A stretch of 46,584 nucleotides of DNA, counting the filler, from Jimgerdemannia flammicorona (taxonomy: Eukaryota): assembly GCA_003990765.1 (NCBI GenBank). It is 2 parts of 2 records of this genome, joined end to end, with 100 filler letters (N's around TTAATTAATTAA, not from the genome) between each part and the next. Parts side by side here need not be neighbours in the genome. Positions count along the whole stretch, not along the records: positions 23,343 to 46,584 come from RBNJ01001131.1; 1 more part is not named here. One strand, given 5' to 3'. The notes beneath the pieces were generated by a model, which saw only the letters and a program-made list of their open reading frames with translations, was not told the origin of the DNA and did not search any database. Position numbers and translations under genes: made by a program. This document shows, in pieces, positions 2,025-42,331 of this stretch. Position 1 is the first letter of the stretch; each line of letters opens with the position of its first letter.

Positions 2025-3120
2025 ATGACCACTGAGATCTACAACCATATCCGTGCTGACATTTGGAATGCCATTGTCAACTGAGCCACACCCCCTTTGC
2101 CCCTCATGAATATCCATAGCCTAGCACCCCTCTACTTCATGGAAGCCTGATGGAATGCTCTGAACATGCTTAGTGAGGCCCACCAAATCAGACAAATCTC
2201 AAGCTACTACCAGATCGGCCGCCTCCTGGAAGATATGGTCAAACACCACCATGATACAGACATTACCTAGATGTCTCAACACCAGAAGCTCATCACCTGC
2301 AAACATCGAGAACTCTTCTACAAGTATAGTACCATTATTTCCCACCTCTGAGTTACTACCAGCGAAATGGTTGCTACCCTGTCCTATGGCCAAATCAATG
2401 ACATGATATAAGAACTCAACCACAAGTACCTCGAGTACATTGAAACCACAGACAGAACCTTCCCACACCCCAATGACCATATCCTGCAAATGCCTCAAGT
2501 TGGATATACCATGAAGGACATCTACAATATAATCCACTTCAATGAAGACAAAGCAGAAGACAATAATCCCTCTGATGCTGACATGACCTCTAGCCAAGGA
2601 TCTCTGCCAACCCTGATCACTCCGCCAACCTTGCCAATGAACTTACAACAGTTCATAACTATATATGAGACTTATTGGGACAATGACCACTGGCACGAAT
2701 ACCAACCAGTATTTACCCCGATTACTTCAATTACAATGAAGAGACCAGAGAACACAACCTGTACCTCCAGACAACCCTCAAGATTGAACCAACCACTCCA
2801 CTATCTGAGTATGTGTGACATGAACCACAGTCGCCAGCTTACTATAATCCTGCAACTTATAGTGCTGTAACTTATAGAAGATATACAGACAGCGAATCCA
2901 ATGAAAGCAAAGACAATACAACCATCCTTCATCCACCAACACCTTATCCAGCCTACGAGACAGATGATGCTATCCTGTGGGATGGTGACGAAGTCCCAAT
3001 GTATTACTATCTCAGTAAATAAGGAGAAGTAATATGCGAATCACTCTTCCTAGACAACTACTTCATCAGAGATGAGATCATTGATGGTAATGTCATCGAG
3101 ACTACCCAGACAGTGCCTAA
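2025..3120 (+). pseudogene. LTR(U3)-encoded ORF of unknown function, copy A 5' LTR (stops and frameshifts)
   Basis: Homologous to the near-intact 366-codon frames at 10392-11489 and 20881-21978. Confidence 0.75.
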
Positions 3121-3309
3121 ACCCATAAATAGCATAGCAGTCATAGTATAGTTAGACTAGCCTTGTACGACATGACTGTGAACTGACTCAGCAGTCAGAC
3201 GATCTCTTGACATATCAGATCACACTTGTACTATATGACTGCATTCCAACTCAGCAAGGCACTTAGTGCTACATCCATATTTAGCATAGTCCAGATAGCC
3301 CCTCACTAG

Positions 3310-10098: not shown

Positions 10099-10099
10099 T

Positions 10100-12165
10100 T
10101 GTAAGTGCACAACCTCCAAGCCACCGAAATTATACGTCACCCTCTGAACAAGCTACTGAAATCACATGCAACCTCAGAACAAATCTGGAAATCACCTGCT
10201 TGATCACAAAGCTGAGTCAAACCAAAGTTACAGCGCACAAAGCTGAGTCAATATGAAGTCACAGAATACAAGATCTACACAAATGAAATCTTACCAATCA
10301 GGACCAAATGCATATATACCGAGCACCGAGACACATCGAAACAGAGAACCAAAACAATCAGCAACAACAACAAACTTCCAAACACACAAACATGACCACC
10401 GAGATCTACAACCGTATCCATGCTGACATTTGGAATACCATTGTCAACCGAGTCACACCCCCTCTGCCTCTCATGAATATCCATAGCCTAGCACTCCTCT
10501 ACTTCATGGAAGCCCGATGGAATGCTCTGAACATACTTAGCGAGGCCCACCAAATCGGACAAATCTCAAGCTACTACCAGATTGGCCACCTCCTGGAAGA
10601 CATGGTCAAACACTACTATGATACAGACATTATTCAGATGTCTCAACACCAGAAGCTCATCGCCCGCAAACATCGAGAACTCTTCTATGAGTATAGTACC
10701 ATTATTCCCTGCCTCCGAGTTACTACTAGCGAAATGGTTGCTACTCTGTCCTATGGCCAAATCTAAAACATGATATAAGAACTCAACCACAAGTACCTCG
10801 AGTATGTCGAAACCACAGACAGAACCTTCCCACACCCCAATGACCATATCCTGCAAATGCCTCAAGTTGAATACACCATGAAGGACATCTACGATATAAT
10901 CCACTTCGATGAAAATGAAGCAGAAGACAATGATCCCTCTGATGCCGACATGACCTCTAACCAAGAATCTCTGCCAACCCTGATCACTCCGCCAACCTTG
11001 CTGATGAACTTACAACAGTTCATAACTGCATATGAGACTTATTGGGACAATGACCACTGGTACGAATACTAACCAGCATTCACCCCTGATTACTTCAACT
11101 ACAATGAAGAGACCAGAGAACACAACCTGTAACTCCAGACAACCCTCGAGATTGAACCAACCACTCCACTACCTGAGTACGAGCGACATGAACCACAGCT
11201 GCCAGCTTACTATAATTCTGCAACTCATAGTGCTGTAACTTATAGAAGATACACAGACAGCGAATCTGATGGAAGTGAAGACAATACAACCATCCTTCGA
11301 CCACCAATATCTTATCCAGCCTACGAGACAGACAATGCTATCCTGTGGGATAGCGACGAAGTCCCAATATATTACTATCTCAACGAACAAGGAGAAGTAA
11401 TCTGCAAACCACTCTTCCTAGACGACTACTTCATCAGAGATGAGATCATCGATGGTGATGTCATCGAGGACTACCCAGACAGTACCTAAACCCATAATTA
11501 GCATAGCAGTTATAGTATAGTTAGACTAGCCTTGTACAATGTGACTGTGAACTGACTCAGCAATCAGACGATCTCTTGACATGTCAGATCACACTTGTAC
11601 TATGTGACTGCATTCCGACTCAGCAAGGCACTTAGTGCTACATCCATATTTAGCATAGTCCAGATAGCTCCTCACCAGTATAAATACCCCCTCCCCCAGA
11701 CCTCAAAATCTCAGACTAGAATACACAAGAACATTCCTGAATACTTCCCAACAATATTCCTTCACATAACTACTCCTAGTATAGCAATATCATGAATAGC
11801 AAATAAACCTATTCAATAACCCACAAACTACTCTTAAGTAAATCCACTCCCTGTTAGGTCTCATTCCTAACCCCGTCACGAAATTATCTAATTGGGTATT
11901 GTCTGCAGCGATACACCAATTCAACTAAGCTGGCCTTAGTTTCTTGAACTTCCTGAAATACGGAAAATCCTGAACATCTAGAACTAGTCTGAAAAAGGAC
12001 TTTGGTTGAGACATCAACCTGATCTTGAAATCAATAAGCATAGAGGACATACTCCATATGAAATTGATCTTGACCATAAGAAAATGGTCTTCCAGAATAT
12101 CCAGAACTTTCAGAAAACTCTTCCAGAACTATGTAATGGTTACTCTAAAAAGCAACCCTCTTACA
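10100..12165 (+). repeat. 3' LTR of copy A (2066 bp)
   Basis: TGTAAG...CTTACA termini, preceded by the PPT and followed by TSD CTAAT. Confidence 0.96.
10392..11489 (+). pseudogene. LTR-encoded ORF (365 aa reconstructed, MTTEIYNRIHADIW...DVIEDYPDS), copy A 3' LTR
   Basis: Track ORFs 10308-10766 and 10857-11072 and the terminal TAA at 11487 are all in one frame, broken only by point-mutation stops. Confidence 0.8.
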
Positions 12166-12170
12166 CTAAT

Positions 12171-13909
12171 AAGGAGCAGATTTACTTAAGAGTGGGTTGT
12201 GGGTTATTGAATAGGTTTATTTGTTATTCATTATATTGCTATACTAGGAGTAGTTGTATAAAGGGATATTGTGGGGAAGTATTCAGGAATGTTCTTGTGT
12301 GTTCGAGTCTGAGATTCTGAGGTCTGGGGGAGGGGGTATTATACTAGTGAGGGGCTATCTGGACTATGCTCAATATGGGTGTAGCACTAAGTGCCTTGCT
12401 GAGTCAGAATGCAGTCATGTAGTACAAGTGTGATCTGACATGTCAAGAGATCGTCTGACTGCTGGGTCAGTTCACAGTCACGTCATACAATGCTAATCTA
12501 ACTATACAATGACTGCTAGGCTATTTATGGGTTTAGGCACTGTCTGGGTAGTCCTCAATAACATCATCATCAATTGCATCATCTCAGATAAAGTAGTCAT
12601 CTAGGAAAAGTGGTTTGCAGATTACTTCTCCTTGTTCGCTGAGGTAATAATACATTGGGACTTCAACTCCATCCCACAGGATAGCATCGTCTGTCTCATA
12701 GGCTGGATAAGGTATTGGTGATGTATTGTCTTCACTTTCATTGGATTTGCTATCTGCATACCTTCTATAGGTTACAGCACTATGAGTTGCAGGATTGTAG
12801 TAAGTTGGCAGCTGTGGTTCATGTTACTCATACTCAGGTGGTGGAGTGGTTGGTTCAATCTCAGGGGATGTCTGGAGGTATAGGTTGTGTTCTCCGGTCT
12901 CTTCATTATAGTTGAAGTAATCGGGGGTGAATGCTGGTTGGTATTTGTGCCAGTGGTCATTGTCCCAATAAGTCTCATATGCAGTTATGAACTGTTGTAA
13001 GTTCATCGGCAAGGTTGGCAGAGTGATCAGGGTTGGCAGAGATCCTTGGCTAGAGGTCATGTCAGTGTCGGAGAGATCATTGTCTTCTGCTTCATCTTTA
13101 TCGAAGTGGATTATATCATAGATGTCCTTCATGGTGTATCCAACTTGAGGCATTTGCAAGATATGGTCATTGGGGTGTGGAAAGGTTCTGTCTGTGGTTT
13201 CGACGTACTCGAGGTACTTGTGGTTGAGTTCTTGTATCATGTCATCAATTTGACCATAGGACAGGATAGCAACCATTTTGCTGATAGTAACTCAGAGGTG
13301 GGGAATAATGGTACTATACTCATAGAAGAGTTCTCAATGTTTGTAGGCGATGAGCTTCTAGTGTTGAGACATCTGGGTAATGTCTGTATCATAGTGGTGT
13401 TTGACCATGTCTTCTAGGAGGCGGCCAATCTGGTAGTAGCTTGAGATTTGTCCTATTCGGTAAGCCTCGCTAAGCATATTCAGAGCATTCCATCAGACTT
13501 CCACAAAGTAGATGGGTGCTGGGCTATGGATATTCATGAGGGGCAGAAGGGGTGTGGCTCGGTTGACAATGGCATTCCAAATATCAGCACAGATACGGTT
13601 GTAGATCTCAGTGGTCATGTTTGTGTGTTTGGAAGTTTGTAGTTATTGTTATTTGTTTTGGTTCTCTGTTTTGACGTGTCTCAGTGCTCGGTATATATGT
13701 ATTTGGTCCTGATTGATAAGATTCTGTTTGTGTAGATCTTCTGTTCTGTGACTTCATATTGACTCAGCTTTGTGCCTGTGACTTCAGTTTGACTCAGCTT
13801 TGTGATTAAGCAGGTGATTTCCAGATTTGTTCAGAGGTCGCGTGTGATTTCAGTAGCTTGTTCAGAGGGTGACATATAATTTCGGTGGCTTGGAGGTTGT
13901 GCGCTAACA
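12171..13909 (-). repeat. 3' LTR of copy B, U3/R part
   Basis: Reverse complement of the family LTR, with the PPT adjacent at 13911-13928. Confidence 0.94.
12533..13618 (-). pseudogene. LTR-encoded ORF, copy B 3' LTR
   Basis: Contains track ORF 12824-13276 and carries a small internal deletion. Confidence 0.75.
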
Positions 13910-20204: not shown

Positions 20205-22270
20205 TGTAAGAGTGTTGCTTTTTAAGGTAACCATTATGTAGTTCTGGAAAGGTTTTCTGGATATTCTGGATATTCTGGAAGACCGTTTTCTTATGGTCAA
20301 GATCAATTTCGTATGGAGTACATCCTCTACACTTATTGATTTCAAGATCGGGTTGACGTCTCAACCAAAGTCCTTTTTCGGACTAGTTCTGGATGTTCAG
20401 GATTTTCCGTATTTCAGGAAGTTCAAGAAACCAAGGCCAGCTTAGTTGAATTGGTGTATCGCTGCAGACAATACCCAATTAGGAAATTTCGTGATAGAGT
20501 TAGGAGTGGGACCTAATAGGGAGCAGATTTACTTAAGAGTGGGTTGTGGGTTATTGAATAGGTTTATTTGCTATTCATTATATTACTATACTAGAAGTAG
20601 TTGTGTAAAGGGATATTGTGGGGAAGTATTCAGGAATGTTCTTCTATGTTCGAATCTGAGATTCTGAGGTCTGGGGGAGTGGGTATTTATACTAGTGAGG
20701 GGCTATCTGGACTATGCTCAATATGGATGTAGCACTAAGTGCCTTGCTGAGTCAGAATGCAGTCATATAGTACAAGTGTGATCTGATATGTCAAGAGATC
20801 ATCTGACTACTGAGTCAGTTTACAGTCATGTCGTACAATGCTAATCTAACTATACTATGACTGCTAGGCTATTTATGGATTTAGGCACTGTCTGGGTAGT
20901 CCTCGATGACATCACCATCAATTGCATCATCTCAGATAAAGTAGTCATCTAGGAAAAGTAGTTCACAGATTACTTCTCCTTGTTCACTGAGGTAATAATA
21001 TATTGGGACTTCATCTCTGTCCCACAGGATAGCATCGTCTGTCTCATAGGCCCGATAAGGTGTTGGTGGACGAAGGATAGGTGTATTGTCTTCACTTTCA
21101 TCAGATTCGCTATCTGCATACCTTCTATAGATTACAGCACTATGAGTTGCAGGATTGTAGTAAGCTGGTGGCTGTGGTTCATGTCGCTCGTACTCAGGTG
21201 GTGGAATGGTTGGTTCGATCTCAAGGGTTGCCTGGAGGTACAGGTTGTGTTCTCCAGTCTCTTCATTGTAGTTGAAGTAATCGGGTGTGAATGCTGGTTG
21301 GTATTCGTGCCAGTGGTCATTGTCCCAATAAGTCTCATATGCAGTTATGAACTGTTGTAAGTTCATCGGCAATATTGGTAGAGTGATCAGGGTTGGCAGA
21401 GATCCTTGGCTAGAGGTCATGTCAGCATTAGAGGGATTATTGTCTTCTACTATATCTTCATCAAAGTGGATTAAATCATAGATGTCCTTCATGGCATATC
21501 CAACTTGAGGCATTTGCAGGATATGGTCATTGGGGTGTAGGAAGGTTCTGTCTGTAGTTTCGACATACTCGAGGTACTTGTGGTCGAGTTCTTGTATCAT
21601 GTTGTCGATTTGGCCATAGGACAGGGTAGCAACCATTTCGCTGATAGTAACTCGGAGGTGGGTAATAATGGTACTATACTCATAGAAGAGTTCTCGATGT
21701 TTGTGGGCAATGAGCTTCTGGTGTTGAGACATCTGGGTAATGTCTGTATTATGGTGGTGTTCGACCATATCTTCCAGGAGGTGGCCGATCTGGTAGTAGC
21801 TTGAGATTTGTCTGATTCAGTGGGCCTCACTAAGCATGTTCAGAGTATTCCATCAGGCTTCCATGAAGTAGAGGGGTGCTAGGCTATGGATATTCATGAG
21901 GAGCAGAGGGGGTGTGGCTCGGTTGACAATGGTATTCCAAATGTCAGCATGGATACAGTTGTAGATCTCGGTGGTCATGTTTGTGTGTTTGGAAGTTTGT
22001 AGTTGTTGTTGTTTGTTTTGGTTCTCTGTTTCGACATGTCTCGGTGCTCGGTATATATGCATTTGGTCCTGATTGGTAAGATTCTGTTTGTGTAGATCTT
22101 GTGTTCTGTGACTTCATATTGACTCAGCTTTGTGCGCTGTGACTTCGGTTTGACTCAGCTTTGTGATCAAGCAGGTGATTTCCAGATTTGTTCAGAGGTC
22201 GCGTGTGATTTCAGTGGCTTGTTCAGAGGGTGACATATAATTTCGGTGGCTTGAAGGTTGTGCACTTATA
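20205..22270 (-). repeat. 5' LTR of copy B (2066 bp)
   Basis: Adjacent to the PBS; outer end TATAAG (mutated TGTAAG) next to TSD TGTGC. Confidence 0.95.
20881..21978 (-). pseudogene. LTR-encoded ORF, copy B 5' LTR (best preserved: 366 codons, three TGA stops)
   Basis: 1098 nt with no frameshift. Includes the 278-aa track ORF 20932-21768. The stops fall where other copies have CGA, CAA or AGA. Confidence 0.82.
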
Positions 22271-23226: not shown

Positions 23227-23242
23227 TTTTTTTTTTTTTTTT

Positions 23243-23342
23243 NNNNNNNNNNNNNNNNNNNNNNNNNNNNNNNNNNNNNNNNNNNNTTAATTAATTAANN
23301 NNNNNNNNNNNNNNNNNNNNNNNNNNNNNNNNNNNNNNNNNN
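23243..23342. other. Artificial assembly spacer: 44 N + TTAATTAATTAA + 44 N
   Basis: Six-frame stop linker embedded in an N run totalling 100 nt. Confidence 0.97.
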
Positions 23343-23356
23343 CCCCCCACCTCTAT

Positions 23357-26300
23357 CTAATGAAAAACCACTTTGTCTAACATAATCTCTACCCTCTCAC
23401 CACTCTGCTCACAGATCCTTGCCACCAAACCACAACATTGCCCCCCCTGAGGACCCCAACCCACCCACCATCCAGTCAGCAGATCCTTCAACAGCTCCTT
23501 CCATCTTAATATCTTCTCCTGCAGCCCTACCTGCCACCCCTCCTCAAATACAAAAAGCCAATGTCCCACCAATCCCACCCACACTGCTAACACCCACCCC
23601 ACCTACTAGCCAAGATCTCAAGTCCTCCCAGTGGCCCCCCTCACCTGCCAGCCTTTGCTCCACACCTAGTCTATTCCCTATTTCTATCCAAAAGTCCCTC
23701 AAAACCTCACACTCTCCCAACCAATGTTCTGGTATCTGCACAAGACCCCCAGCTTGCCCTATATTATAACACTCCTCACAATCAAAACAGTCACTGTCCA
23801 CCAGATGCCCAGTACAGAAATTCAACATGATATTCCTCTACAGCATTCGCCACCATACTATCCAGAACTTGGGAGGAAGCCACCTCCACACCTCAGCACT
23901 CCAAGACCAGATACCTGCCCAGTCCCACTCCTTGCCGATTCCTGCTGCCTGCTAGCCACTTGGCCAAAGATCCTGGCCAAGACCCTGCTGATACTCCATG
24001 CCATCCCTAATATTAAAAGTAGCAAGTGGAGTACCCCCCAGGAGCAGTCTATCCTATTGCCACATATCAGGCCCCCACATTACCTCCCCCTCATTATCTT
24101 ACCAGCATAGGTCAATTTGGTGTACTCCATCTACCACTCTCTACCAAAAGTCCTTAAACTGCAGCTGCTGATTTCCATTCATCCCTACCAAAGAGAGCAG
24201 ATCTCTGGAGGACCCTCAGGGGGAGGTTCTCATCTCCCACACCTTCTGCAGCAGAGGCACCCAACCCCCTCCCTGCAGTTCAGCAGCTCTCTTCAACTAC
24301 CAGACTCACAAGCAGTGCAATCTCTTAGGGAAATCCACAAGACCAAGACCTCCCCTGACCACCGGTATTGCAAGAGTATCCCAACTGATCTGGGACCTCC
24401 TCTCTGCCCAAATCTAATCCCTAGCTACCTTCATCAGCCTCTTCACCATCCAAGCTGGGAAGTCCTGGTAATAGGTCATGTACCACAGCTTGAGGAACCA
24501 GTATATATTCAGAATTGACACCCACCCTATCAGAGAGATATGGTGGCCTCCCCAACCTTGAAGGGCCTCCTCCCAAATAGTCACTCTGCTCTCTCACCAC
24601 ACTCATGGCAAGGCAGAACCATATACAGAAAGGAAGATGCCCAGATACTGCACCATCTCACCAGTAGAGACAATTGTTCCAATGACATCCCCACCCACTA
24701 GCCCATTCTCTAGCACCATTGTCTCACACTTATACCAGTTGAGCTTTGCCCCAGAGTAAGCCTTATACCATTCCACTGTCTCCTTAAGTGCCTCAACATC
24801 TGCCACAGACCTAAGTTCAACCACTATATCATCAGCAAAGGCCCCCACCTTCCACACTATACTATAAATAGAGAGCCCTGCCATCTTCCAGCAAATCCTA
24901 TCCATCAACAGTAATAATGAAAAGGCATAAAGAATAGAGGACAGAGGGTCCCCCTGAGGAACTCCTCTTCTCAAGGAAAATTCCAGCCCATGGTGACCAT
25001 TACATATCAGTGCTGCTCTACTGCTCTCTAGCAAACTCAACATAGAAGCCTGAAATCTTGGGAGAACACCAATTCAATCCAATACCTTGCCCAGCCAAAC
25101 CCAGCAAACCCAGTCATAGGCCTTCTCCTGGTCCAAAAAGACCAATCTTCCATTCAGTCCACAAGTCTGGGCCCCTTCAATGACACTATACACCCATGCA
25201 GTCCCATCCCTTATAAGTCTGCTCCCAACAAAGCTCTGCTACTCCTCCCCCAGCACCTGTTGGGCAACTTTCTGCAGCCTTGTGATAATCACCTTAGTCA
25301 TCATCTTCCTATCTATATCCAGAAGCATGATCAGTCTCCAATTCTTCCAGTCTTCTCTCCTCCCCTTGTCTTTGTACAATAAAGCCACCAGCCTGAGGTT
25401 CTGCTCTCCAACCCACTCACCACTCAGAAGAACATGGTCACAGAGAGCAGTCATCTCACCCAAAACTCTGGGGACCTTTACCATCTTCTTCCAGAAGTCC
25501 CACAATAATCCATCCTCCCCTGGTGCTGTTCCAAGTTTAGTTGCTGCAAGGACACTCTGGATCTCCTCTCTTTGCACTGGTAAGATCAAGTTACTCAGTC
25601 TGGCTACTTGCGGCAGCCCCCACTCCCCTAGTGTATCTGCAATCGCTGCCTCATCAGTACCCCCTTCTCCCTCACTCTACAAACCCTGCCATCTCTTCTT
25701 TAAAACTCTTAAGATTTGTTGTGTGCTATGTACTATATCCCCATTGGCATCTAGGACCCCATTCCACTGATGTTGCACCCTCCTAGCTTTGAGGAGTCTT
25801 GATAAGTACCTTGAGGGCTGCTCACCCTCCTCAAGCTCCTGCTACCTTAGCCTAGCAGCCATACCTTGCATATGAGTCTCCTCCTCTTCTCTCAACACCT
25901 GTTGCAGTTCCACTATCTCCAATTTTGCTCACTCTATCCTCCAATCCTCCATCCCATCAGAAGTAAGCAAATCCACCCAATTCATTTGCAATCTCCTCAA
26001 CCTGCTGGAAGTACACCCCATGTGCTTCCTCCTCCATCTCCCAGCTTCCCTACCAGCCTCTCTCTAATAGACCCTCACAGCCTCTTTCAATCTCATCCAA
26101 TGGACACCCACAGATAAACTCTCATGCCTCCAGATAAAAACCTTCACCTAAATGTCCTCCACCCATAAGTCCCACAACCCCTTCTCAGCCAGCAGGGAGG
26201 AGTTAAGATGCCAATGTCCAGGTCCATCTCCACTCCCCCCAAACTGCCCCTGCCCCAATAGTCCCTAGTGATCAGACCATGGGCACCACTCCATCTCCAA

Positions 26301-26947
26301 CACCTTCCAAACATCTGAACCCCAGTACTCTGCCATCAGAATTCAGTTAATCCTTGTACCCAAGCCATTCACCCAATGTATGTAGACCCTGTTATTGCTC
26401 CACTGTGTTCTGCTCATATCTCCTAAGGAGCTCAACTTCTCCACCTCCTCCCATATATCCAGACCTCCACTTCTCCCCCCTGCACTCCTCCCTCCATCAG
26501 TTCTATCTAACTGCTGATCCCAAACCATATTAAAGTCCCCACCAAGAACATCGACCCCTTTCTCCAAGAGAATACCCTCCTCCAGCAGCTCCTTAATCCA
26601 TGCAGTTCTCTCACTTCTAACTGTGGGGCAGTAGCAAGAGCCAACCTTCACTGACTCCCACCCTGGCCAATGCCAATCTCCCCAGACCAAGTGATCACCC
26701 CAGCTCCTGATTCCCCCCAAGTCTCCTCTACTCTTCCTCACCAGAATCGCCACTTTTCCAAACCAAGCAATAGCCCCACCCATTCCCTAGTCCACTCCAC
26801 CTGATTGTTCTCATCTTCACACCAAACATCCTATAGTAAAAAGAGATCAGCCTCTATTCTCTTGAGCCAAGTAAAAATGTTCTTATGCTGCCCAGATCCC
26901 CTTAACCCATTCACATTCAAAGAGAAAATATTGGTTGTACTGTTCAT
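23357..26947 (-). pseudogene. LINE-a ORF2 (APE endonuclease, RT, C-terminal Cys/His motif)
   Basis: IFSLNVNGL, LGGDFN, RGVPQGDPLS, FADD, CFDCEEC...EHWLGEC. Confidence 0.9.
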
Positions 26948-26978
26948 AAGAAATAATGATATATCATGATTCCATCCT

Positions 26979-29007
26979 CTACAAGTCTATACTTAGCTCC
27001 TCCTGCACCAAGTCCAAGTTATGTTCAGTAGCTAGTTTCTTTTCTCTAGCTTCCCATACCTCCAACCTTCCCAGAAGTTCTACTATTGCCCCATCTTCTT
27101 GCTTCTCAAAGTCCTCATGATACTCCAGACAGGCCTCCCACCAGAGCTACAAACCATGACACTCTGCCCAACAGTATACCACCTGCTCACTAGCAACCAC
27201 CACCAGCTCAGCCTTCCTCACCTCATCAACCTCATATCTCTCCTTCTCTAGGAAAATTGAAAGAATCTCCACCTTCAGTACCTCCACCACTCCATTGCTA
27301 TGTAGAATCCATGTCCAATGCTCCTCAGGCATTACCTGCAGGTCCACTTCTCCCAATGCCTCAGCCCTAAGGTTATCCATCACCTTGCTCATTTACAGCA
27401 AGTTCCCCACCTCCTTCTCTCTCGGAGTCCCTGGCTGTCCTGCATCCAACATTGTGGTGTCAGCTCCTACACTGGTAGCCTCATCCCACTCCTCCTCAGG
27501 GACATCCACCAGCTCATCCTCACCAACCGCCACCACCTGGCCCCCTTTTGCCACATCAGGGACCCCAAAGTACACTCACTGGGCTCCCTATATCAGTACA
27601 TCCTCTGTTGTCCTCCTCTTCCCAGCCGGGCCTCTTCTGATAAGAGGGGGGGGGGGTGGTATCCAATTCCTGCTCTCAGACCTCAAAAGTGCTGTCAGTA
27701 TAGGGGTTCTTGCTCAGCACCTTCCCAGCTCCTTCCTTGCCTGCCTCCATCTCCCCTTCTCCTTTACTAGTCCAGACACTGGCTTCAATGCTCTCAGATA
27801 CCTCAGCCCCATCTGCCTTCTTCTTTGCCTCTACTGTCATACTCGCCAATAGCTCTCTCTGTCTCCTGCACCCCTGTGCCTACTCCCACTGCCTCTTGTC
27901 CATGTGGATATGCTTCTCCTCCATAATCTTCAAATGTGTCATCTCTTCAAAGAGCTTTCAGGCCTTTGCCCTTCATTCTACTGTACCACTCAACTCCTCC
28001 AGCATTTCCAACAAGTCCTCCTCCTCCTCTTCACTCCCCTTTACCCTTGACACCCTACAGACAACAGCCCCCAACATCAGCACTGAAGGCCAGTCATTTG
28101 TCTTTCCAGTGGCCTCCCTCCCTGCCAGTCTAATTCTGATATCCACATTATCTGTCCTGATTGCTGTCCCCTCCCACACCCGGAAGCCAATATCTACCAT
28201 ATCACTATACTCTGCCACTACCTCCTCTACCCTCCTCCTAGTCTCAACCTTTGACACCATAGGCACCCCTTTGACTAGCAGCTGTATCACCCTGGGGTCC
28301 CACCTAAGGCAGTACACCATAGAGACCACTACTTCACCAACCACCACTCTAGTCTTCATTGCCTCATCCAGTGGGCCTGCCTCCTCAAAGCCCACCTCCA
28401 CCCCCTCCAGCCCCTTCAGGAACTTCACCAAGGCTGCTCCAGCCACCTGCTGTGAGATAAGCCCCAGGACCATCCTAGCTATCACTGCCAAGCTCTGAAA
28501 GCACAAGATAGCCACAAACTCCAAAACTGACTTCTTGAGTAATGGTGCCACCATTAGCCCCATCACACCATCAGCCAGGTCTCCCTTCCAAATCGGTAGC
28601 CCCAGCCCCACTCTGCCATCAGCCATTACATCTCTTTTTTTCTCCTGATTCTCCATCATACTGCCATCAGCAGTCCTACCCTCAGCCACAATACCTCCAG
28701 ACCCTATGCTCATACCCCCAGCCTGAGAACCTCCCCCTCTTCCAAAGCTTGCCTTGCCCTTCCCCACAGCAGCACCAGCCCTGTTTTCAGCCAGCCATCC
28801 ACTCTTCTTCACCTTGTCAGCAAAGCTTGAGGGGCCAGTCCTTTCTCTATTACCACCCAATACTGGTCCTTCTCCAGAGCTCTCACCATCCTTCGACCCT
28901 CCAAAGGCCCCCATTCCTAGGCCATAACTCCTCCCCACATTCTGCCAGCTAAAAGCCCCAGATCCCCCCAACTCAGTACATCTGTCAGAGCTCTTGCTTG
29001 ATGACAT
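26979..29007 (-). pseudogene. LINE-a ORF1
   Basis: Track ORFs 27973-29100, 27393-27575 and 27147-27392 align with LINE-b ORF1. Confidence 0.82.
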
Positions 29008-29094
29008 TTTGATAGTACCTTTTCTCCTAGTTGTGTCGAAAACCATTGCTTGAAGTTTTGTGTAACATGAATTGTACAGGAGAAAGGTGAAAGT

Positions 29095-30133
29095 ATACAA
29101 TCAAGGACACCTAGGAGGAACCAATATATATGACAAGGTAAGAAGAACCATATGATGGCTCAAGATGGAAGAAGACCTATACCAATTTGTCAAAGGGTGT
29201 GATAAGTGCTAAAAACAAAAATAAGATCAGTAAAACCAGACACCCAGATCATCAAAAATTGAGCCTATCTCCTTACACCACATTGTAATGGATATCATTA
29301 GACCACTACCAGTAACACTATCAGAAAACTGCTATATTATAGTTATTGTAAACCTCTTTACCAAATGGATAGAAGCAGGAGTATTACAAGAAGCCAATAT
29401 CCTCTCTATAGCTGACTTCTTGTACTGAGAAATCATCTGCTGCTGTAAGATACCAAGGCAAATTACTACAGACCACAGCACAGAATTTGTCAATAGATTC
29501 TATGAGATAATGTATCAGAAATATAAGATTCAACACATCAAGACCACCATGTATCACTCTTAAGGAAATGGACAGATAGAAAGAACCAATAAGACCCTCA
29601 AGAACATCCTGGTGAAGATCTCAGAGACATATGAGAATTGGAATAACTACCTCTGTTCTACAAGATATATGGTCACAGAGTATACACTTTATCCCAAGAG
29701 AACTGCTCTTCAGAGAAGAAGATTTTGATGGAATCTTAGCTACAAATCTAGATCTAACTTGGAGACAGATTGATGCAAAAATCCAGAGGCTATACTAAAT
29801 CAGGAAGAAGGCTAAAGATTATATCATCAAGTTACAAGTACTGACAAGGAAGAATGTGGAAAAGAATTACAAGACCCTAGAACCCATCCAAATTGGAGAA
29901 AAGGTCCTACTGTATCAAAATATGATAGAAGCCTCATAGTCATAAAAACTGGAGTTCAAATGGGAAGGACCCTTCTATGTGTAAGATATCAAGACTATCT
30001 TCTGGCTTAGAAAAATCTCAGGGACCATACTGCCTACTATGGTACATAGGAACAGACTCAAGAAGTACCATGAACCTATATAAGAGAAGCAAAATGTGAT
30101 GACCACTCATGAGGTTCTAGTCTGCAAATCATA
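29095..30133 (+). pseudogene. Ty3/Gypsy integrase of element E (no chromodomain seen), heavily mutated
   Basis: GHLGGTNIYDKV...FVKGCDKC zinc domain, MDIIRPLP...LFTKWIEA core, GNGQIERTNKTLK, KWEGPF, VHRNRLKKY. Confidence 0.88.
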
Positions 30134-30447
30134 ACAGTATGTCTCATAACCAGCAGGCTATCTGTCTGGACTATTCTCTAAGGGATATGATATCAACAAC
30201 TACTCATCTATGAGACTTTCAAAGCCAGAGGAGTTCAAACCATCAACTGATTGGTCAAGATCTGAATCAGGCCCTTGCTCTATATGAAGAAAGTGACTCT
30301 TCACCATTACACCAAAATATATAGAGAAGATGCCAGCCCATAAATACTACTTTTTGACCTCTTGTCAGAGGTTATGGGATTAGCAAATTTTTCAAAACTG
30401 GACCAATGAATAAGGATGCTCAAGAAGATCCTTATTTAGGAAGAAGA

Positions 30448-32018
30448 TGTAACAGTAACTTCAGAATGATAACATCAGCACAGGAGACAGTCTTTCCTTA
30501 TAAGCCACCAGATCAGAGTACAAGAAGATCATATAGCATAAAAGATGAGCAATGATGACCAACTATGAGTCATTGTGACCACAGTATGGGTATCTTGAGG
30601 AATATAAAAGAAGGATCAAGAAACTACAGTAGCAGTAACCAACAAGACCCACTAATCTCAAAATAGCTCAAAGACTTACTACAAACAAAATACCTGCTGC
30701 TTGCTAAACCTCAAGGTCAAGGAACCACCAAGATACCTCAGTCAAAGAAAGAATGTTCCAAGACATCAGAAGAGCCATAAGGACCTGCTCAAGAAGGACT
30801 CCTAGTATCAACCTAGATACTGGTGACCCTTATCATTATATCCTCTACCACTATAAAATGGAAACAAGGATCACCATTGCTACTAAATACCTCTAAATGT
30901 GGCAGGAGTACAAAATAAGAAATCTTCTCTGCCAGGAGTTCCTATAGGCCAGCCCTCAAGAGTTACAAAATGCCACTCTTATGAATATATGTGAGACAAG
31001 GATAGCTAAGAAGATTCACCAGATCTTCAGGCATGCACTATGGACAATTTCCAACTTGGAGTATGTTAGAGTCTCAGACTTCAGAGACCTATCAGCCCAC
31101 TATATCAATGCACTAGAAGCCAGGGTGGCTATAGAAGCCCAGTCCACTATCACCCTCAATAGTGATGAAGTAGAAGACTTCTGGCATCTCATTCTTCAGA
31201 ACAACCCAGACCAATTCCTACAAGGATTGATCTCAGTATTCTAAGATCCAAGCATCTAGGTTAGACCTCCCCAAGACCCCACATTTGTCCCCTATTTTAT
31301 AGAAGAGAATCTCATAGACTGGAGAGCTCCAGACCTCCTTGTTCCTGATTTCTCTGCCAAACATGATGACATTATTGGTGATGACATCATCCTGTATGAC
31401 ATACATAAAATACACGATCCATGTGATGAGATAGATGAGATGTTTACAGATCTTATCTCCTTCAAAGACATCCTGACCTCTGATGAGAATGAAGCACCTA
31501 TAGTCTTGAACATTCTGCTCTAAGTCTCTTGATTATACTGAATAATATCAGCACTATTTTTCTATATAACAGCTATTCCACTACCAGTATTCTGAGGTGA
31601 CTCAGAATTATTCCAGCACCATTTTCCTATATTACTGAAATTATATCAGTATCTTGAACCTGTGTAACCATCAGTGCCAATGCTGGAACTTAGCAGTTTT
31701 CTATATTCTGGCATTTTATTTTAGTTATTAGAATTTATATTTAGCTTTATATCTTAGCAACTATTGAATTATAGTTTATATAAATACCCCTCTTATTTCC
31801 TCTGAAATAAAGTCAGTCTACTCAATATAATATACACAATCCCTTATAAGCAATCTAAGAGATAACATGATAGTTTAAAGATAAGAAGTTTGAGAATTAT
31901 AAGACCTTGAGATGATACTCCAATAAGAACTTACTTATAACAAACTTAAGTTAGTCTAAGAGATATACCTTGAAGAGAATCTGATATATTTGAAGGACTT
32001 AGCAACTACTATGTGACA
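30448..32018 (+). repeat. Probable 3' LTR of element E (~1.57 kb)
   Basis: Purine run AGGAAGAAGA (30438-30447) followed by TGTAAC; ends GTGACA. Internal TATAAATACCCC (31779) and AATAAA (31806). No second copy in the window to confirm the boundaries. Confidence 0.55.
30663..31523 (+). pseudogene. Element E accessory ORF (~286 aa reconstructed), unknown function
   Basis: One frame with no frameshift, broken only by TAA/TAG codons explicable as CAA/CAG transitions. In-frame ATGs at 30753, 30858 and 30981. The start at 30663 (ATA) is inferred to be a mutated ATG. Confidence 0.6.
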
Positions 32019-32266
32019 ATATATAAGTTATTAATATCTATAGTAGAGTTCTCTGAGCTTTAGCAAGCTTCTCAGTAAGTATAGTTCTAGTATAAGTAAC
32101 TGATTTTTAGGTAGAATCAGATTAGAAGAGAAGATGACTATTATAGATAAGAGGAAGGGTAATAATAATAAATCAGTCAGTGTGGACCTTTCTCTGGTAA
32201 CATTCAGGTTACATAATCTTTTGGCAATACTTTTGACACAGTTTCTGGAGAAAAGCTACTAGTATC

Positions 32267-34297
32267 ATGGCGACCAATGAGCATCCAGAGGTGCATACTA
32301 GGCAGAGTGGCCCTGGAGCGTTTGAATGGCAGCAAGTGGAGAGAGGCCCCAGCTTGGGGAGAAGTATGAGGGGCCTGCTGGCAGGAGGCCATGGTGGAGG
32401 AGGGGGCGGAGCTGGAGGTCAAGGGTCTGGCAGGGTGAGCTTTATGGAGAAGGTGAAGGGGGGTCGGCAGAGAGCTGGACTGGAGAGCTGGCTGAGAGGG
32501 GGGAAGGTACCGGTAAAGGTTATCAGGCAGCAACCTCTTGGGGGTACCTCTCTGGAGGGTCATAGGGGTGGGGCTGGGGGGGTAGCAGCTGGGGCAGAGA
32601 CTGCTGATGGGGGTGTGATGGGCAATCTGGAAAAAAATCTAGATGGGACTACTGATGGTGAGCCAAGCAGTGGGAAGGGCATGAGGCCTGGGGACCTGGT
32701 GGATGGTGTAACAGGACTGGCAGTGGCTCTATTACTCAAGAAGTCGATCTCAGTGTTCGCAGTCATGCTGTGCTTCCGGGGCTTAGCAGTGATGGTGAAA
32801 ATAGTATTGGGGCTTATTACTAAGCAGGTGGCAGGCGTGGCTTTGGTGAAGTTTCTGAAGGGACTGGAGGGGGTGGAGGTGAGTTTTGAGGAGATTGAAC
32901 TGCTGGAGGAGGTACTGAAGGTTGGGTTGGTGGTTGGGGAGGTGTGTGTTCTGATGGCAAGGTGTTTGAAATGGGATCCGAGGGTGGTCCAACTGCTGGT
33001 GAAAGGAGTATCTACGGTGATGGTGATGGAGATGAGAAAGAGAGTGGAGGATGTCATGGCAGAGTATAGAGAGGTAGTAGATATCGGATTCAGGGTCTGA
33101 GAAGGGACCATGCTCAGGACTGGGGATGTGGATATAAGGATTCAGCTAGCTGGGAAAGAGGCTACTGGGAAGATGAGGGACTGGCCTTTGGGGATGGTTT
33201 GGGGAGCATTCCTGTGCAAGGTGACATGGGTGAAAGGAAGTGAAGAAGAGGAGGAAAATTTATTAGAAGTGCTGGAGGAGCTGGATGGGGCTGTGGAATG
33301 GCAAGCTAAGGCCTGGAAGACTTTCGAGGAGTCAACACACCTGGAGGTGGTGGATGGAAAGAGGATTCGAGTGGACAAGATGCAGTGGGAAAGGACTCAG
33401 AGGCAGAAGAGGCAGAAGGATCTGCTGGCTAAACTGGGGGGTGGACCACAGAAGGATGCAAGCATGAAGACGGGTACAGAAGGGGCCAGAGCGAGTGTCT
33501 GGGCTGGTGAGAGGAGTGGGAATGATGGGGCAAAGACAGGGAAGGCAAAAGAGGTGAAGATTAGCAATCCATATACTGATGGCACCTTGGAGGTTTGGGA
33601 TGAAGTCTGGGAGAACTCCCCCACCCCTTCCCCTCTTATCAGGTATGGCCCGGCTTCCAGGAACAAGTCTGGGGAGGATGTGACGATGCTGGGGACCCAG
33701 CAGGTAAAATTCAGTATTCCAGAGGTAATGGATGGGGACCAAGTAGTGGCGGCCGGGGAGGAGGAACTGGTGGATGTCCTGGAGGTGTGGGATGAGGATG
33801 CAAGTACTGGAGCTAACACCATGATGATAGACAGAGGGAGGCCGGTGACCCCTGGTGGGAAGGAGGTGGGAAACCTACTTTGGGTGTGCCAGATGATGAA
33901 TAACCTGGCAGCAGAAGAGCTGGGGGAGGTGGACTTGTGTGGGATGGGTGACGAGCACTGGGCAAGAATTTTGCAGGGGGAAGAAGTGGTGATGACACTG
34001 AAGGTGGAAATTCTTGTGGTGTATCTGGAGGAGGAAGGGTATGAGGTGGACAAGGAGAGGGAGGTAGAGTTGGCAGTTGTCACTGGAGAGAAGGCTGAGT
34101 ACTGTTGGAACAGGTGTCATGGGTTGCAGCTTTGGCAGGAGGCTTGCATCGAGTACAGAGAGGAGTTTGAGGAGAAGGCTGATGAGGAGATGAATGAGCT
34201 GTTGGCTGGACTGGAAGCTCAGATGGCTGAAGAGGAGGCGGTGATGGCTGAATATAATCTGGACATGGCATAGGAGGAGATGGGCATGGAGCAGTAG
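32267..34297 (+). pseudogene. LINE-b ORF1 (~676 codons, two premature stops)
   Basis: Track ORFs 32267-33100 and 33110-34273 are in frame; the end aligns with the LINE-a ORF1 stop. Confidence 0.85.
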
Positions 34298-34327
34298 GGA
34301 TTGATTGAGACCAAACAATATTTCATT

Positions 34328-37300
34328 ATGATCAGTACAACCAACATTTTTTCTTTGAACATGAATAGGCTAAGGGGTGCAGTTAGACACAGGAACATTT
34401 TTATTTGGTTGAAGGGATTGGAGGCCGATCTCTTCCTCTTGCAGGATGTCAGGTGCAAGAATGATTCTGATAGGATGAAATGGACTAAGGAATGGGGTGG
34501 CATGGTGATTTGGAACAGCAAGGTCAGGATTCTGGTTCAGAAAGGCAGAGGGGAGATAAGGGATGTGAGGAGCTGGGGGGAGAGACTGGTCTGGGGTGAG
34601 TGGATTCATGCAGGTTGGGAGCCAGTCACAGTTGGCTCCTGTTACTGCCCTGTGGTGCAGGGGGAGCATGTGGATTGGGTGAAAGGGCTCCTGAAGAGTG
34701 GGATCCTTGCTGAAGCTGGGTTGAATATGCTTGGAGGAGATTTCAATATGGTTCGAGATGTACAGCTAAATAGAACTGATGGAGGATGGGGTGCTGAGAG
34801 CAGAAGTGGGGGGCTGGTGATGTGGGAGGAGGTCAAAAGGCTAGGAGCACTGGTGGATGCTGGTAGGGAGTACTGGGGGGATAGGAGGGTATATACACAT
34901 TGGGCTGGAGGTCTGGGGACAAGGATTGACTGGATTCTGATGGCCAACTGTTGGGACCGCGATGTTTGGAAGGTGCTAGAGGTAGAATGGTGTCTGTGGT
35001 CAGATCACTGGGGCCTTTTGGGACAGGGGTGTTTTGGAGGAAGTGGGGATGGGCCTGGACATTGGCACCTAAATTCCTCCTTGTTGGATGATGAGTCCTG
35101 GTGGGAGGAGTGAGCAAAAGACATTCAGCTGAAGGTGGTGAATTGGTGGCAGGAAGGGACTACAATTGGGGTTAGGTAGATAAGGATGAAAGAGATGGCC
35201 AGGATGTATTGGAGTGAGGCTGGCAGAGTGGCTGGGAAGCAGCGAAGGCAGAGAGTGCATTAGGCTTCTACTAGATTGGCTAGGCTCCTGGAGGAGTGGG
35301 CAAGACTGACAGTAGTGGAGGGAGAAGAGGATTGGAGAATAATAAGGGTGAAGATGGAGGTTGGGGAACTACAACAGGTGCTGTGTGAAGAGGAAGAGTC
35401 AAGGATGTAAGGCCTGGTGGCACGGCTTCATTGGCAGGGGCTGGAGGAAGGGGAGAGATCTTTCAAGTTTCTCACAAGGATACTTCGAGCGAGAAGGGTA
35501 CAACAGTGGTGGAAAGGGGTACTTGACTCAGAGAGTATACTAGTGCATGGTGTACAGGATATCCTTGGAACACTGAAGGCGCGATGGAGTGGATTGTGGA
35601 ATGAGGAGGAGGGTGGGGTGGATGCTACAGCTATTGACCAAACATTAGAAGATTGGCACCCACCACAAGCTGAGGGATTAGGTGATCTGGTGATGCCTGT
35701 AAAGGAGGACGAGATCCACCAGGTTCTTGCCGCGACAGCCTCAGGTATGGTGCCTGGGGAGGATGGCCTCCTCTGGGACTTCTGGAAGCAAATGGTGAGA
35801 GTCCCGGGCATGTTGAGGGAGTTGACAGCACTGTATGACTCTATATTGCAGTCAGGGAGATGGGTGGGGGAGCAGGACCTTGGGCTGGTGATGCTACTTT
35901 ATAAGAACAAAGGAAGGTGAGAGGATTGGAAGAACTGGCAGCTGATAATGTTGCTAGATATGAACAGAAAGTTGGTGACTAAGGTAGTGGTTGCAAGGCT
36001 ACAGAAGGTAGCCCAGCAAATTATGAGTGTTGAGCAGAGGGGCTTCATAGGGGGTTGGCTTATTAGAGATGGCATGGCCTGGGTACATGGAGTTATTGAA
36101 GGTGCTCAAGCCTGTGGACTGGATGGGCATCTTGTCTTCTTGGATCAGGAGAAGGCTTATGACCAGGTGCAGCATGTCTGATTGGCGAAAGTATTAGATA
36201 GAATTGGAGTTCCAGTTCCATTTCAGTCAGCGATGGTCAGCCTACTGGAAAGGAGTAGGGCTGCACTCGTGTATAATGGGCATAGAGGGGTAGCATTCCC
36301 TCTGGGTAGGGGAGTGCCCCAGGGGGACCCACTGTCCTCCATTTTGTATACTCTTTTCTTGAAACCTCTAATGGACAGGATCCGGCAGAGGATAGTGGGG
36401 CTCTCTATCTATGGAGTTGGCTGGAAAGTTGGAGCCTTTGCAGATGATATGGTGGTTGGTTTGGGAGCGACTGCAGATGTCAAGAAGCTCAAGAAGACAG
36501 TGGAGTGGTATGAAGAGAACTCTGGGGCGAAGCTGAATTGGCACAAGTGTGAAACAATGGTGCTGGGTAATGGCCTGGTGGGTGGAGAAGTTATTGGAAC
36601 AATTGTCCCCACCAGAGAGGCAGTGTGGTACTTGGGCATCTATTTGTTGATCTATGGGTCTGTTCTGCCCAGGCTGTGGTGGGAGCAGAGGATTGGAATT
36701 TGGGAGGAGGACCTGCAGGGTTGGGGGGGAAGACACTTCTCTCTAGCAGAAAGGATCTCGATTTTGAATATATACTGGCTGCCAAAGCTGTGGTATTTGG
36801 CTTATCATCTGGACTTTCCAGCCTAGGTAGTGAAGAGATTGGTGAAGGTGGCCAAGGGATGGATTTGGACTGGCAGACAGAGTCAGATTGGTTGGGAGAC
36901 TTTGTCCCTACTGGTGGCAAGAGGTGGTCTTGGGCTGGTGGACTTCCCCAAAAGACTACACTGCTTGAGGGCATGGTGGCTTAGGAGGGCGGTGGAGTTG
37001 CGTGGAGGGGGCTGGGTTCCCCTACTGCAGAAGGTATGGGAGAGGTGGACATCACCAAGAGGCTTGACTGGTGATCTTCTTTCATTAGTTGGGCTTCAGA
37101 ATACTGCACAACTGAGATATAAAGGCTTCTGGTGGGGGATAGCCGAGGGGGCACACCGCATTGGTATTCGCTGGCAAGGGGATGAGGGGGAGAGGGCTTG
37201 GGGCCTGGCGATGTGGAGATGGGATGGCATTCTTCTGGGAGGCATGCCTTTACTTGAGTTCAATATTGGTGATGGAATTGAATGCCAAAGGGGACCAGGC

Positions 37301-37984: not shown

Positions 37985-38082
37985 TGGGTGGTGATATTGT
38001 ATACTTATTCATAGACTGGTAATAAAGACGGAGTCCAAGGGACTATAAAAAAAAAAAAAAAAAATATTAATAAATTAGTCAG

Positions 38083-40277: not shown

Positions 40278-42331
40278 TATAAGTGTACAACCTCTAAGCC
40301 ACAGAAATCACATATCACCCTCTGAACAAGTCACTGAAATCACATGCGACCTCTGAACAAATCTGGAAATCACCTGCTTGATCACAAAGCTAAGTCAAAT
40401 CAAAGTCACAGTATACAAAGCTGAGTCAATATGAAGTCATGGAATACAAGATTTACACAAACAGAATCTTACCAATTAGGACTAAATATATATACCAAGT
40501 ACTAAGATGTGTCAAAACAAAGAACCAAAACAAACAATAACCACAACTTCTGAATATACACAAACATGACCACTGAGATCTATAACCACATCCATGCTGA
40601 CATTTGGAATACTATTGTCAACCAAGCCACACCCCCTCTGCCCCTCATGAATATCTATAGCCTAGCACCCCTCTACTTCATGGAAGTCTGATGGAACACC
40701 CTGAACATCCCACTAGATCAGACAAATCTCAAGCTACTACCAGATTGGCCACCTCCTAGAAGATATGGTCAAACACTACCATGATACAGACATTACCCAG
40801 ATGTCTCAATATCAGAAACTTATCACCCACAAACACCGAGAACTCTTTTACAAGTATAGCACCTTTATTCCCCACCTCTGAGTTACTACTAGTGAAATGG
40901 TTGCTACCCTGTCCTATGGTCAAATTGACAACATGATATAAGAACTCAACCACAAGTACCTTGAGTATGTCAAGACTACAGACAGAACCTTCTCACACCC
41001 CAATGACCATATCCTGCAAATGCCTCAAGTTGGATATGCTATAAAGGATGTCTATGATATAATCTGATTTGATAAAGATGAAGCAGAAGACAATGATCCC
41101 TCTGATATCAACATGACCTCAAGCCAAGAATCTCTGCCAACCCTGATCACATCACCAACTCTGCCAATGAACTTACAACAGTTCATAATCACCTATGAGA
41201 CCTACTGGGACAATGACCACTGATACAAATACCAATCTGTGTTCACCCCAGATTACTTCAACTATAATGAAGAGATAGAAGAACACAATCTGTATCTTCA
41301 GACAACCCTCGAGATTGAACCAACCACTTTGCCACCTGAGTATGAGTGACACGAACCACAGCTGCCAGTTTACTACCACCCTGTGACTCATAGTGCTATA
41401 ATCTATAGAAGGTATGCAGACAGTGAATCCAATGAAAGTGAAGACAATGCACCCCTCCTTTGCCCACCAATGCCTTATCCAGCATATGAGACAGATGATG
41501 CTATCCTGTGGGATGGTGACACAGTCCCAATATATTACTACCTCAGCGAACAAGGAGAATTAATCTGTGAACAACTCTTCCTAGATGACTACTTTATCAG
41601 AGATAATGTCATCAATGGTGATGTCATCGAAGACTACCCAGACAGCATCTAAATCTATAGATAGCTTAACAGTCATAGTATAGTTAGATTAGCTTTGTAT
41701 AACATGGCTGTAAACTGACTCAGCAGTTAGATGATCTCTTGATATATCAGATCACACTTATACTACATGACTGTATTCCAACTCAGCAAGGCACTTAGTG
41801 CTACATCTATATTTAGCATAGTCCAGATAGCCCCTCACTAGTATAAATACCCCCTCCCCTAACCTTAGAATCTCAGATCTAAACAATCTGAATACAACTC
41901 CTGAGCACTTCTCCACAATATCTCTTCATACAACTACTCCTAGTATAGCAATATTATGAATAGCGAATAAATCTATTTAATAATCCACAAACCACTCTTA
42001 AGTAAATCTGCTCCCCATTAAGTCCCACTCCTAACCCCCTATCACAAAATTTCCTAATTGGGTATTGTCTGTAGTGATACACCAATTCAACTAAGCTGGT
42101 CTTAGTTTCTTGAACTTCCTGAAATACAGAAAATCCTGAACATCTAGAACTAGTCTGAAAAAGGACTTTGATTGAGACATCAACCTGAACTTGAAATCAA
42201 TAAGTATAGAGGATGTACTCTATATGAAATTGACCTTGACTATAAGAAAATGGTCTTTCAGAATATCCAGAACTTCTAGAAAACCCTTCCAGAACTATAT
42301 AATGGTTATCCTAAAAAGCAACTCTCTTACA
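40278..42331 (+). repeat. 5' LTR of copy D
   Basis: TATAAG...CTTACA termini; homologous to the other family LTRs. Confidence 0.94.
40566..41652 (+). pseudogene. LTR-encoded ORF, copy D
   Basis: ATG ACC ACT GAG start conserved; the C-terminal part is track ORF 41383-41652. Confidence 0.75.

Follow-up and report, generated by a model that had tools for sequence, protein, structure and literature searches.

A window of 46,584 nucleotides from the genome of Jimgerdemannia flammicorona was analyzed, and this 46.6-kb stretch proved to be a nest of decayed retroelements. It holds three copies of a Gypsy-type element with dUTPase, protease, reverse transcriptase (RT)/RNase H and integrase, referred to here as family A (copies A1, A2 and A3), and the remnant of another Gypsy-type element, referred to as element E, which sits between the 5' ends of two copies of a long interspersed nuclear element (LINE). 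We describe a gene at 30690-31523 that lies within a probable long terminal repeat (LTR) of element E, and compare its product with the protein encoded inside the LTRs of family A. The features of element E, all on the plus strand, were the following.

29093..30287, +: integrase remnant, 5'-truncated in the zinc-binding domain, with stops and at least one frameshift
30438-30447, +: polypurine tract AGGAAGAAGA, read from the sequence and abutting the LTR
30448..32018, +: probable 3' LTR of E, TGTAAC...GTGACA, 1571 bp, from its TG...CA ends, polypurine tract and contig boundaries
30448, +: TGTAAC, start of the LTR
30566..30572, +: TGAGTCA, 118 nt into the LTR
30603..30609, +: TATAAAA, 87 nt upstream of the start of the open reading frame (ORF); putative promoter for a transcript of the ORF itself
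30690..31523, +: decayed gene carried in the LTR, 277 codons and a stop, with five internal TAA/TAG codons and ATA at the start position
31355..31675, +: hypervariable stretch, comprising the acidic C-terminal tail of the ORF and ~150 nt downstream, TGACTCA at 31598 included
31598, +: TGACTCA, 75 nt past the stop of the gene
31779..31789, +: TATAAATACCC (TATAAATACCCC at 31779), putative core promoter of the genomic RNA
31806..31811, +: AATAAA, 27 nt after the second TATA; the sole canonical polyadenylation (poly(A)) signal noticed in the LTR
ending at 32018, +: GTGACA, end of the LTR

Integrase remnant and limits of the probable E LTR

Element E was cut at ~29091-29100 by a LINE copy. Its last pol domain, an integrase with H2C2 region and DDE core, lay directly before the 3' LTR at 30448. 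Pfam searches of the frame of 29093 revealed Integrase_H2C2 (E=1.9e-8) and rve (E=9.7e-7), and a GPF-type C-terminal module was located in the frame of 29091, where the match to the GPF region was weak. No chromodomain was reported by Pfam in the three forward frames over 29091-30447. The chromodomain-less integrase that an initial annotation of this DNA had placed upstream of the gene was real, but frameshifted.

The limits of the LTR were examined with contigs from one soil-metagenome run, the only sequencing run found to contain the stretch (0.11 of its words); no RNA run was among those listed, which counts neither for nor against expression. In the metagenome run, 2472 contigs covered the E region at a likeness of at least 80%. 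One X2 contig switched to unrelated sequence exactly before 30448, and five X1 contigs ran on past 32018 with CTTGGTGCCCATTGG, which resembles a primer binding site. We infer that CTTGGTGCCCATTGG is the primer binding site behind a 5' E LTR, comparable to ACTTGGTAGCAGTGG in family A. The contig depths, which are sums over short metagenome contigs and not copy numbers, were distributed over the region as follows.

29108-30498, integrase: ~370 on average
30499-31354: ~1045
31355-31675: 2.5-34, against 420-2080 on both sides
31676-31996: 1200-2080
31997-32103: 108
beyond 32103: 8.6

Most of the LTR had a summed depth of ~1000-1500. The stretch 31355-31675 was regarded as hypervariable because the depth collapsed there and because the tail that it encodes was rich in insertions and deletions in the protein alignment. 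We consider the region 30448-32018 to be well supported, but not proven, as an LTR of E.

Layout of the LTRs of E and family A

The DNA motifs and peptides that the initial annotation had read from this region were found again, the motifs at the same positions and the peptides in the same frame. It had further proposed that the E LTR repeats the order of the family-A LTR, and comparison of the two agreed with this proposal in both order and spacing. Offsets were counted from the LTR start, 30448 in E and 10101 in A.

TGAGTCA: E, +118; A, +112 and +143
TATA: E, +155; A, +211
ORF start: E, +242; A, +291
TGACTCA after the stop: E, 75 nt; A, ~65 nt
TATAAATACCC: identical in the LTRs of E and A, at the same relative place
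AATAAA: following TATAAATACCC in both
LTR end: ...CA in both

The TGAGTCA heptamer is of the AP-1/Gcn4 type. There were 25 matches to TGASTCA in the window against 13.2 expected; they are not independent, because most lie in the repeated A LTRs, and the two sites of the E LTR taken alone were only mildly unusual. Exact matches to the 11-mer TATAAATACCC occurred five times in the window (3310, 11679, 20681 on the minus strand and 41842 in A LTRs; 31779 in E), being confined to the E LTR and four of the five LTR copies of family A, whereas shuffled sequence was expected to give 0.64 matches even with one mismatch allowed. The DNA of the two LTRs could otherwise not be aligned: the best match was 43 nt at 72% (E=0.023). 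This match, between 31346-31388 and the acidic tail of A, was of low complexity and was not used.

State of the E gene and its protein family

The limits of the gene, 30690-31523, were set by alignment with its relatives. The window copy has ATA at the position of their MP(A/P) start codon, and reading of the sequence showed ATG to be absent between the TATAAAA at 30603 and 30690. The open frame of ~286 codons (30663-31523) proposed initially was not found. In the standard code, the frame 30579-31532 contains eight TAA/TAG codons and is open only if these are read through: those at 30630 and 30636 lie upstream of the family's start, that at 31521 is the family's natural stop, and those at 30705, 30894, 30945, 31242 and 31257 interrupt the gene. 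A ciliate-type code (table 6), which opens the E frame, was considered and rejected; the stops are due to decay, because the frames of family A and of the LINE are open in the standard code and because other E copies read sense codons. In the other copies, from run X1, the first letter differed at 30705, 30894 and 30945 and at the upstream stop 30636. The main differences between the window copy and the others were T in the window for C in the others (99 sites) and A in the window for G in the others (69 sites).

When the E frame, its stops written as X, was compared exhaustively by HMMER with 1.84 billion representative proteins, five relatives emerged; a profile search of a set of 5.8 billion proteins listed 13, and the two results combined gave 14 distinct ones. 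All 14 are encoded on short metagenome contigs and are unnamed or annotated as 'hypothetical protein'; the location of the gene in an LTR was examined for E and A in the window. The E gene family thus comprises at least 14 relatives in three subfamilies, which were 23-72% identical to the window copy (13% for fragments).

E-like subfamily (P0005, P0006, P0010, P0011, P0013, P0014, P0016): 58-72% identity to the window copy
Second subfamily (P0007, P0008): 38% and 31% identity
Third subfamily (P0009, P0012, P0015): 23-29% identity; fragments P0017 and P0018, lacking the N-domain, 13%

P0005 (247 aa, 72% identity) and P0010 (271 aa, 67%) were intact and spanned the E gene from end to end. The MP(A/P) start was common to five relatives, as was an ...LN(F/I)LL end to five, and the motifs W-x-EYEIGH-x-L, AKKIHQIFRH-x-P, W-x-PILQDNPDQ-x-LQGL and PQDP-xx-PYF were conserved. 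The acidic C-terminal tail often ended in L-x-x-L-L. Since start, stop and motifs are kept across such diverged proteins, we argue that the sequence is coding and selected. The E frame, although decayed, belongs to a real protein family that is unnamed and diverged. The initial annotation had called the gene selected; this stands indirectly, through these conserved features and the substitution pattern of family A described below; the window copy of E is broken.

No Pfam or PDB match to the family was obtained. A Pfam scan of nine proteins of both the E and A families at E<=1 found no family, retroviral ones included; a profile search of PDB sequences gave zero matches at E<=10, and the ESM Atlas gave no usable match. 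No relatives were found when viral contigs were searched with A5, P0010, P0008 and P0012, or when genome contigs were searched with P0010 and P0001. A metagenome scan with a 98-aa piece of E returned a single locus, L001; neither blastn nor tblastx matched it to the window, and it was dismissed as chance. The AlphaFold models of E and A, both of low confidence, were alike in showing a helical N-terminal half, a short β-hairpin and disorder; in a fold search with the E model (predicted local distance difference test (pLDDT), 45.9), the best match had a Z-score of 5.1 and all matches were generic helical structures.

The family-A LTR gene

In family A, the gene lay inside the LTR in all five LTR copies, and its frame has survived with 3-12 breaks.

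20882..21978, -: 5' LTR of A2; 365 codons with three in-frame TGA, of which a 294-codon stretch is open
10392..11489, +: 3' LTR of A1; four breaks, no frameshift
2025..3121, +: 5' LTR of A1; nine breaks, end approximate
12533..13618, -: 3' LTR of A2; ten breaks, an in-frame deletion included, start approximate
40566..41652, +: 5' LTR of A3; 12 breaks, end approximate

Two database relatives were identified. P0019 (128 aa) was 84% identical and had an intact N-terminus; P0004, which lacks the N-terminal domain, was 62-63% identical over the C-terminal part and reads through the TGA at 20932. The ratio of nonsynonymous to synonymous substitution rates (dN/dS, Nei-Gojobori) was 0.33-0.46 between the two LTRs of one element; such pairs start out identical when the element inserts and serve as the neutral control under this bias of mutation. 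It was 0.28-0.32 between A1 and A2, about equal to the control, and 0.19-0.22 between A3 and A1 or A2. The values below the control are a modest sign, at the sequence level, that purifying selection may have acted before insertion. The LTR pairs themselves (1733-3796 with 10101-12165; 20205-22266 with 12166-13907) were 7.5-7.8% different. Transitions made up 87-89% of the differences, CpG was strongly over-represented as a context (30-34 changes at ~80 sites), followed by CpA, and on the sense strand C/T differences exceeded G/A differences (84 vs 56; 78 vs 39). Decay of this kind resembles strand-biased deamination linked to methylation.

Comparison of the E and A LTR proteins

By eye, the initial annotation had aligned the two proteins in three colinear blocks, and profile comparison bore these out. 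When six E sequences were compared with two A sequences, hhalign chose blocks 2 and 3 (P=0.011; P=0.012 with 15 E sequences). With 15 E and seven A sequences, E 41-149 was aligned to A 27-132 over 106 columns at ~17% identity (P=8.6e-4); none of 107 column shuffles reached its score of 33.4 (maximum, 23.8), and reversed alignments scored 17.

We also searched the seven A sequences with a hidden Markov model (HMM) of the E family (Z=1). P0019 was found at 20.6 bits (E=1.3e-8) in a colinear alignment of HMM positions 20-142 to residues 6-126, which takes in blocks 1, 2 and 3; the five window copies of A gave E=4e-5 to 8e-3, and P0004, without the domain, gave 0.062. Shuffled decoys of P0019 did not reach 20.6 bits in 20,000 global (maximum, 13.4) or 20,000 local (maximum, 11.9) shuffles, and the reversed P0019 scored -0.4. 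In a blind six-frame scan of the window with this HMM, the only non-self matches at E<=0.01 were three copies of the A-LTR ORF. Smith-Waterman comparison of P0019 with seven E members gave z=3.8-5.3 for four of them, 2.6 for P0010 and ~0 for P0015 and P0009.

On these profile comparisons, the N-terminal ~120 residues of the E and A LTR proteins are homologous, and the rest is not demonstrably so. The accessory-gene family proposed at the outset is shared in its N-terminal domain, while the C-terminal halves showed no similarity, and the resemblance that had been noted between the acidic tails, DDIILYD in E and DDAILWD in A, did not hold up. The pairing by eye of QDPTFVPYF (E) with QPAFTPDYF (A) was likewise unsupported by the profile comparison. 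The integrases of E and A could be aligned over 192-197 residues, at an identity of 23-25% (E=1e-17 and 2e-15); judged by sequence, E and A are deeply divergent Gypsy families.

Probable origin of the LTR gene

We consider it probable (roughly 0.7) that an old Gypsy element, truncated at its 5' end, has its 3' LTR at 30448-32018, and that the presumed U3 region of this LTR (the part unique to the 3' end of the RNA) carries a decayed gene of a superfamily shared with family A and vertically inherited. Most simply, the genes of E and A form one old accessory-gene superfamily that resides in the LTR and was inherited from a common ancestral element. The cassette was no more alike between the two families than pol was, which fits a common ancestral element with an LTR gene and speaks against recent exchange.

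Several results weigh against this reading. The E LTR occurs once in the window, and no E copy with two LTRs was met in the window or among the metagenome contigs; since contig depths are not copy numbers, the status of 30448-32018 as an LTR is supported by the polypurine tract, the TG...CA ends, the contig boundaries and the depth step, and is unproven. The stretch with the downstream TGACTCA is poorly common to the other E copies, and the promoter, poly(A) and U3/R/U5 assignments come from motifs only. At the protein level, comparison of the window copies alone was not significant: the best BLASTP match between E and A had E=0.27 and was non-colinear, and shuffled sequences matched or beat the Smith-Waterman score in 1349 of 2000 trials at full length and in 2330 of 5000 for the N-terminal part. 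The probability that hhalign assigned to the alignment of 15 and seven sequences was only 23.6%. HMMER E-values were, as judged from the decoys, ~tenfold optimistic for this composition, and in the reverse search of the 14 E proteins with an A-family HMM the best match had E=5.2e-4 while P0017, which lacks the domain, had 0.0023. The C-terminal halves, acidic tails included, showed no similarity in hhalign (P=0.55; 85 of 144 column shuffles scored as high), and the AlphaFold pLDDT values (45.9 for E and 31.0 for A) were too low for a fold comparison.

These protein-level results are also what favours an independent origin of the two ORFs, the N-terminal likeness then having arisen by chance or through convergence between helical sequences of similar composition: no significant score from the window copies, a modest hhalign probability, a weak reverse search, unrelated C-terminal halves and structures without confidence. 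We regard this as improbable in the face of a 20.6-bit match that none of 40,000 decoys attained and that vanished on reversal, colinearity over ~120 residues, the Smith-Waterman scores in four of seven comparisons and the blind scan, in which the A ORFs were the sole matches; moreover, the genomic position, strand and flanking motifs are alike. It would be about equally surprising if the E ORF were not LTR-borne and instead lay internally, as a third ORF flanked by the integrase and a much shorter LTR starting near 31676. Depth bins within the ORF, at 30820-31033 (626 and 422), were not above integrase bins, the depth climbs again only at 31676, and a place downstream of pol is, in the portion of PMC6431247 that was available, the usual one for accessory genes. 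Against these points stand the position of the purine tract and TG, at 30438-30449 and not near 31676, the contig break exactly at 30448 and a mean depth over 30499-31354 that is ~2.8 times that over the integrase, together with the homologous A gene, which lies unambiguously within the LTR in every copy.

The initial annotation had also allowed that the gene was exchanged between Gypsy lineages, for which no support was found. LTRs are able to recombine during reverse transcription of co-packaged RNAs, and an identical TATAAATACCC and equal motif order in LTRs that are otherwise unalignable would suit movement of the cassette by recombination. The ORF domains, at ~17% identity, are nevertheless not closer than the integrases, and the DNA likeness of the LTRs is no better than the 43-nt acidic-repeat match; a recent transfer, which would make the cassette more alike than pol, is at odds with this, and an ancient one is compatible with it. 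Overall, we judge transfer unlikely. Least of all do we favour the view that the ORFs are relics not under selection, that is, long frames that happen to be open in LTRs and have no function. All six window copies are broken and there is no known domain, but intact frames of 214-342 aa occur in three subfamilies with conserved start, stop and motifs at identities as low as 23-38%, and the between-element dN/dS is under the within-element control; we hold this view to be very unlikely. The finding of a homologous, LTR-borne gene in both E and family A is real, but less certain and less complete than in the initial account.

Proposed expression and role of the gene

The second TATA and the AATAAA 27 nt behind it fit the promoter of a genomic RNA, which would place the gene in U3. 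The first TATA may drive a separate mRNA of ~1.2 kb that carries the gene and terminates at the poly(A) site of the same LTR; because such a transcript would end within the LTR, both LTRs, and solo LTRs as well, could express the gene. Every LTR, even a solo one, would thereby form a self-contained cassette and complete gene unit, and in each cycle of reverse transcription the gene would be copied anew to the two ends of the element.

The make-up of the modelled protein suggests a regulatory or adaptor protein that may serve the element. The single most likely role, put forward tentatively, is that of a transactivator of the LTR. It is equally only a possibility, and one that we rate as rather doubtful, that a conserved regulatory gene in Gypsy LTRs encodes a product acting back on the element's own promoter, as a counterpart of retroviral U3 genes.

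Neighboring elements in the window

The family-A copies occupied the following intervals.

1733-12165, +: A1
12166-22268, with the last ~310 bp at 1420-1731, -: A2
~40277 to the end of the window, +: A3

The 3' LTR of A2 is interrupted by A1, on whose two sides the 5-bp target-site duplication CTAAT lies, at 1728-1732 and 12166-12170. The family-A LTR is ~2065 bp long (TGTAAG...CTTACA), with TGGTAGCAGTGG after the 5' LTR and the purine tract AAGAAGGGGAGAG immediately before TGTAAG, an arrangement as in E. On the minus strand at 276-1391, an intact frame of 371 codons encodes a dUTPase domain (E=5.4e-28); it matched no family-A copy in the repeat search and probably represents a third element with a dUTPase, the one that received the A2 insertion.

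The two LINE copies (Exo_endo_phos and RVT_1) are arranged head to head, at ~23000-29100 on the minus strand and ~32020-38000 on the plus strand, and were 71-73% alike. Their GC content was high (48-54%), their strands were very strongly skewed (magnitude of the GC skew, ~0.34-0.52), and their proteins were rich in W, G and E. A run of N, taken as an assembly gap and seen as a run of X in translation, lies inside 22223-23617, in the interval that separates A2 from the left LINE copy. The region 38000-40277, which separates the right LINE copy from A3, has a higher AT content and a strongly positive GC skew; a Ser/Pro/Leu-rich frame on its minus strand had no Pfam match.

Relation to known systems and significance

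The nearest analogue of the E and A genes is found in mouse mammary tumor virus (MMTV), whose 'LTR ORF', sag, is a gene of a few hundred codons that lies wholly in U3, in the sense direction, at both ends of the provirus. In the parts of the 'LTR ORF' literature that were available, nearly all reports concerned MMTV sag. There was no sequence relation between sag and the E and A genes (Pfam, nine proteins). Sag, encoded by a vertebrate betaretrovirus, is a membrane glycoprotein, whereas the host elements of the E and A genes are Gypsy-type retrotransposons and the predicted protein looks soluble, helical and acidic. The tas/bel genes of spumaviruses and nef of lentiviruses are likewise accessory genes near or in the 3' LTR; they merely overlap U3 and begin upstream of the LTR, and the Pfam and PDB searches and the fold search with the low-confidence E model gave no match to them. 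Tas, which is expressed from a separate internal promoter, is acidic and transactivates the LTR of its own virus. It served as the model for the role proposed above, and by that analogy transactivation in E and A is a guess.

Extra ORFs with unknown or accessory functions in Gypsy-like elements, one ORF type being common to divergent retroelements, are described in the available parts of three papers; they comprise the additional ORFs (aORFs) of plant Ogre/Athila elements and the ORF3 types that retroelement classes of bdelloid rotifers have in common (PMC5408684, PMC6431247, PMC2864245). As far as those parts go, these ORFs are internal to the element and lie before gag or after pol, whereas the E and A genes are inside the LTR. 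In fungal Gypsy elements of Postia, Phanerochaete and Tuber, a dUTPase is present at the N-terminus of Pol, according to the portion available of PMC2864245. Only family A, with its dUTPase upstream of the protease, matches these elements, and an LTR gene is unmentioned in that portion (PMC2864245). In a limited search of open-access text, no account of a conserved gene within the LTR of a retrotransposon came to light.

Retrotransposon LTRs are usually regarded as control regions that do not code for protein, and a gene within them would be missed by standard annotation of transposable elements. Such a gene would be doubled with each insertion, homogenized in each replication cycle and kept in solo LTRs once the rest of the element has been lost. 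If the relationship is true, a superfamily that extends across distant Gypsy lineages would point to an old and useful accessory function, in regulation, targeting or defence against host silencing, and the LTR-gene superfamily would provide a new marker for the classification of Gypsy elements.

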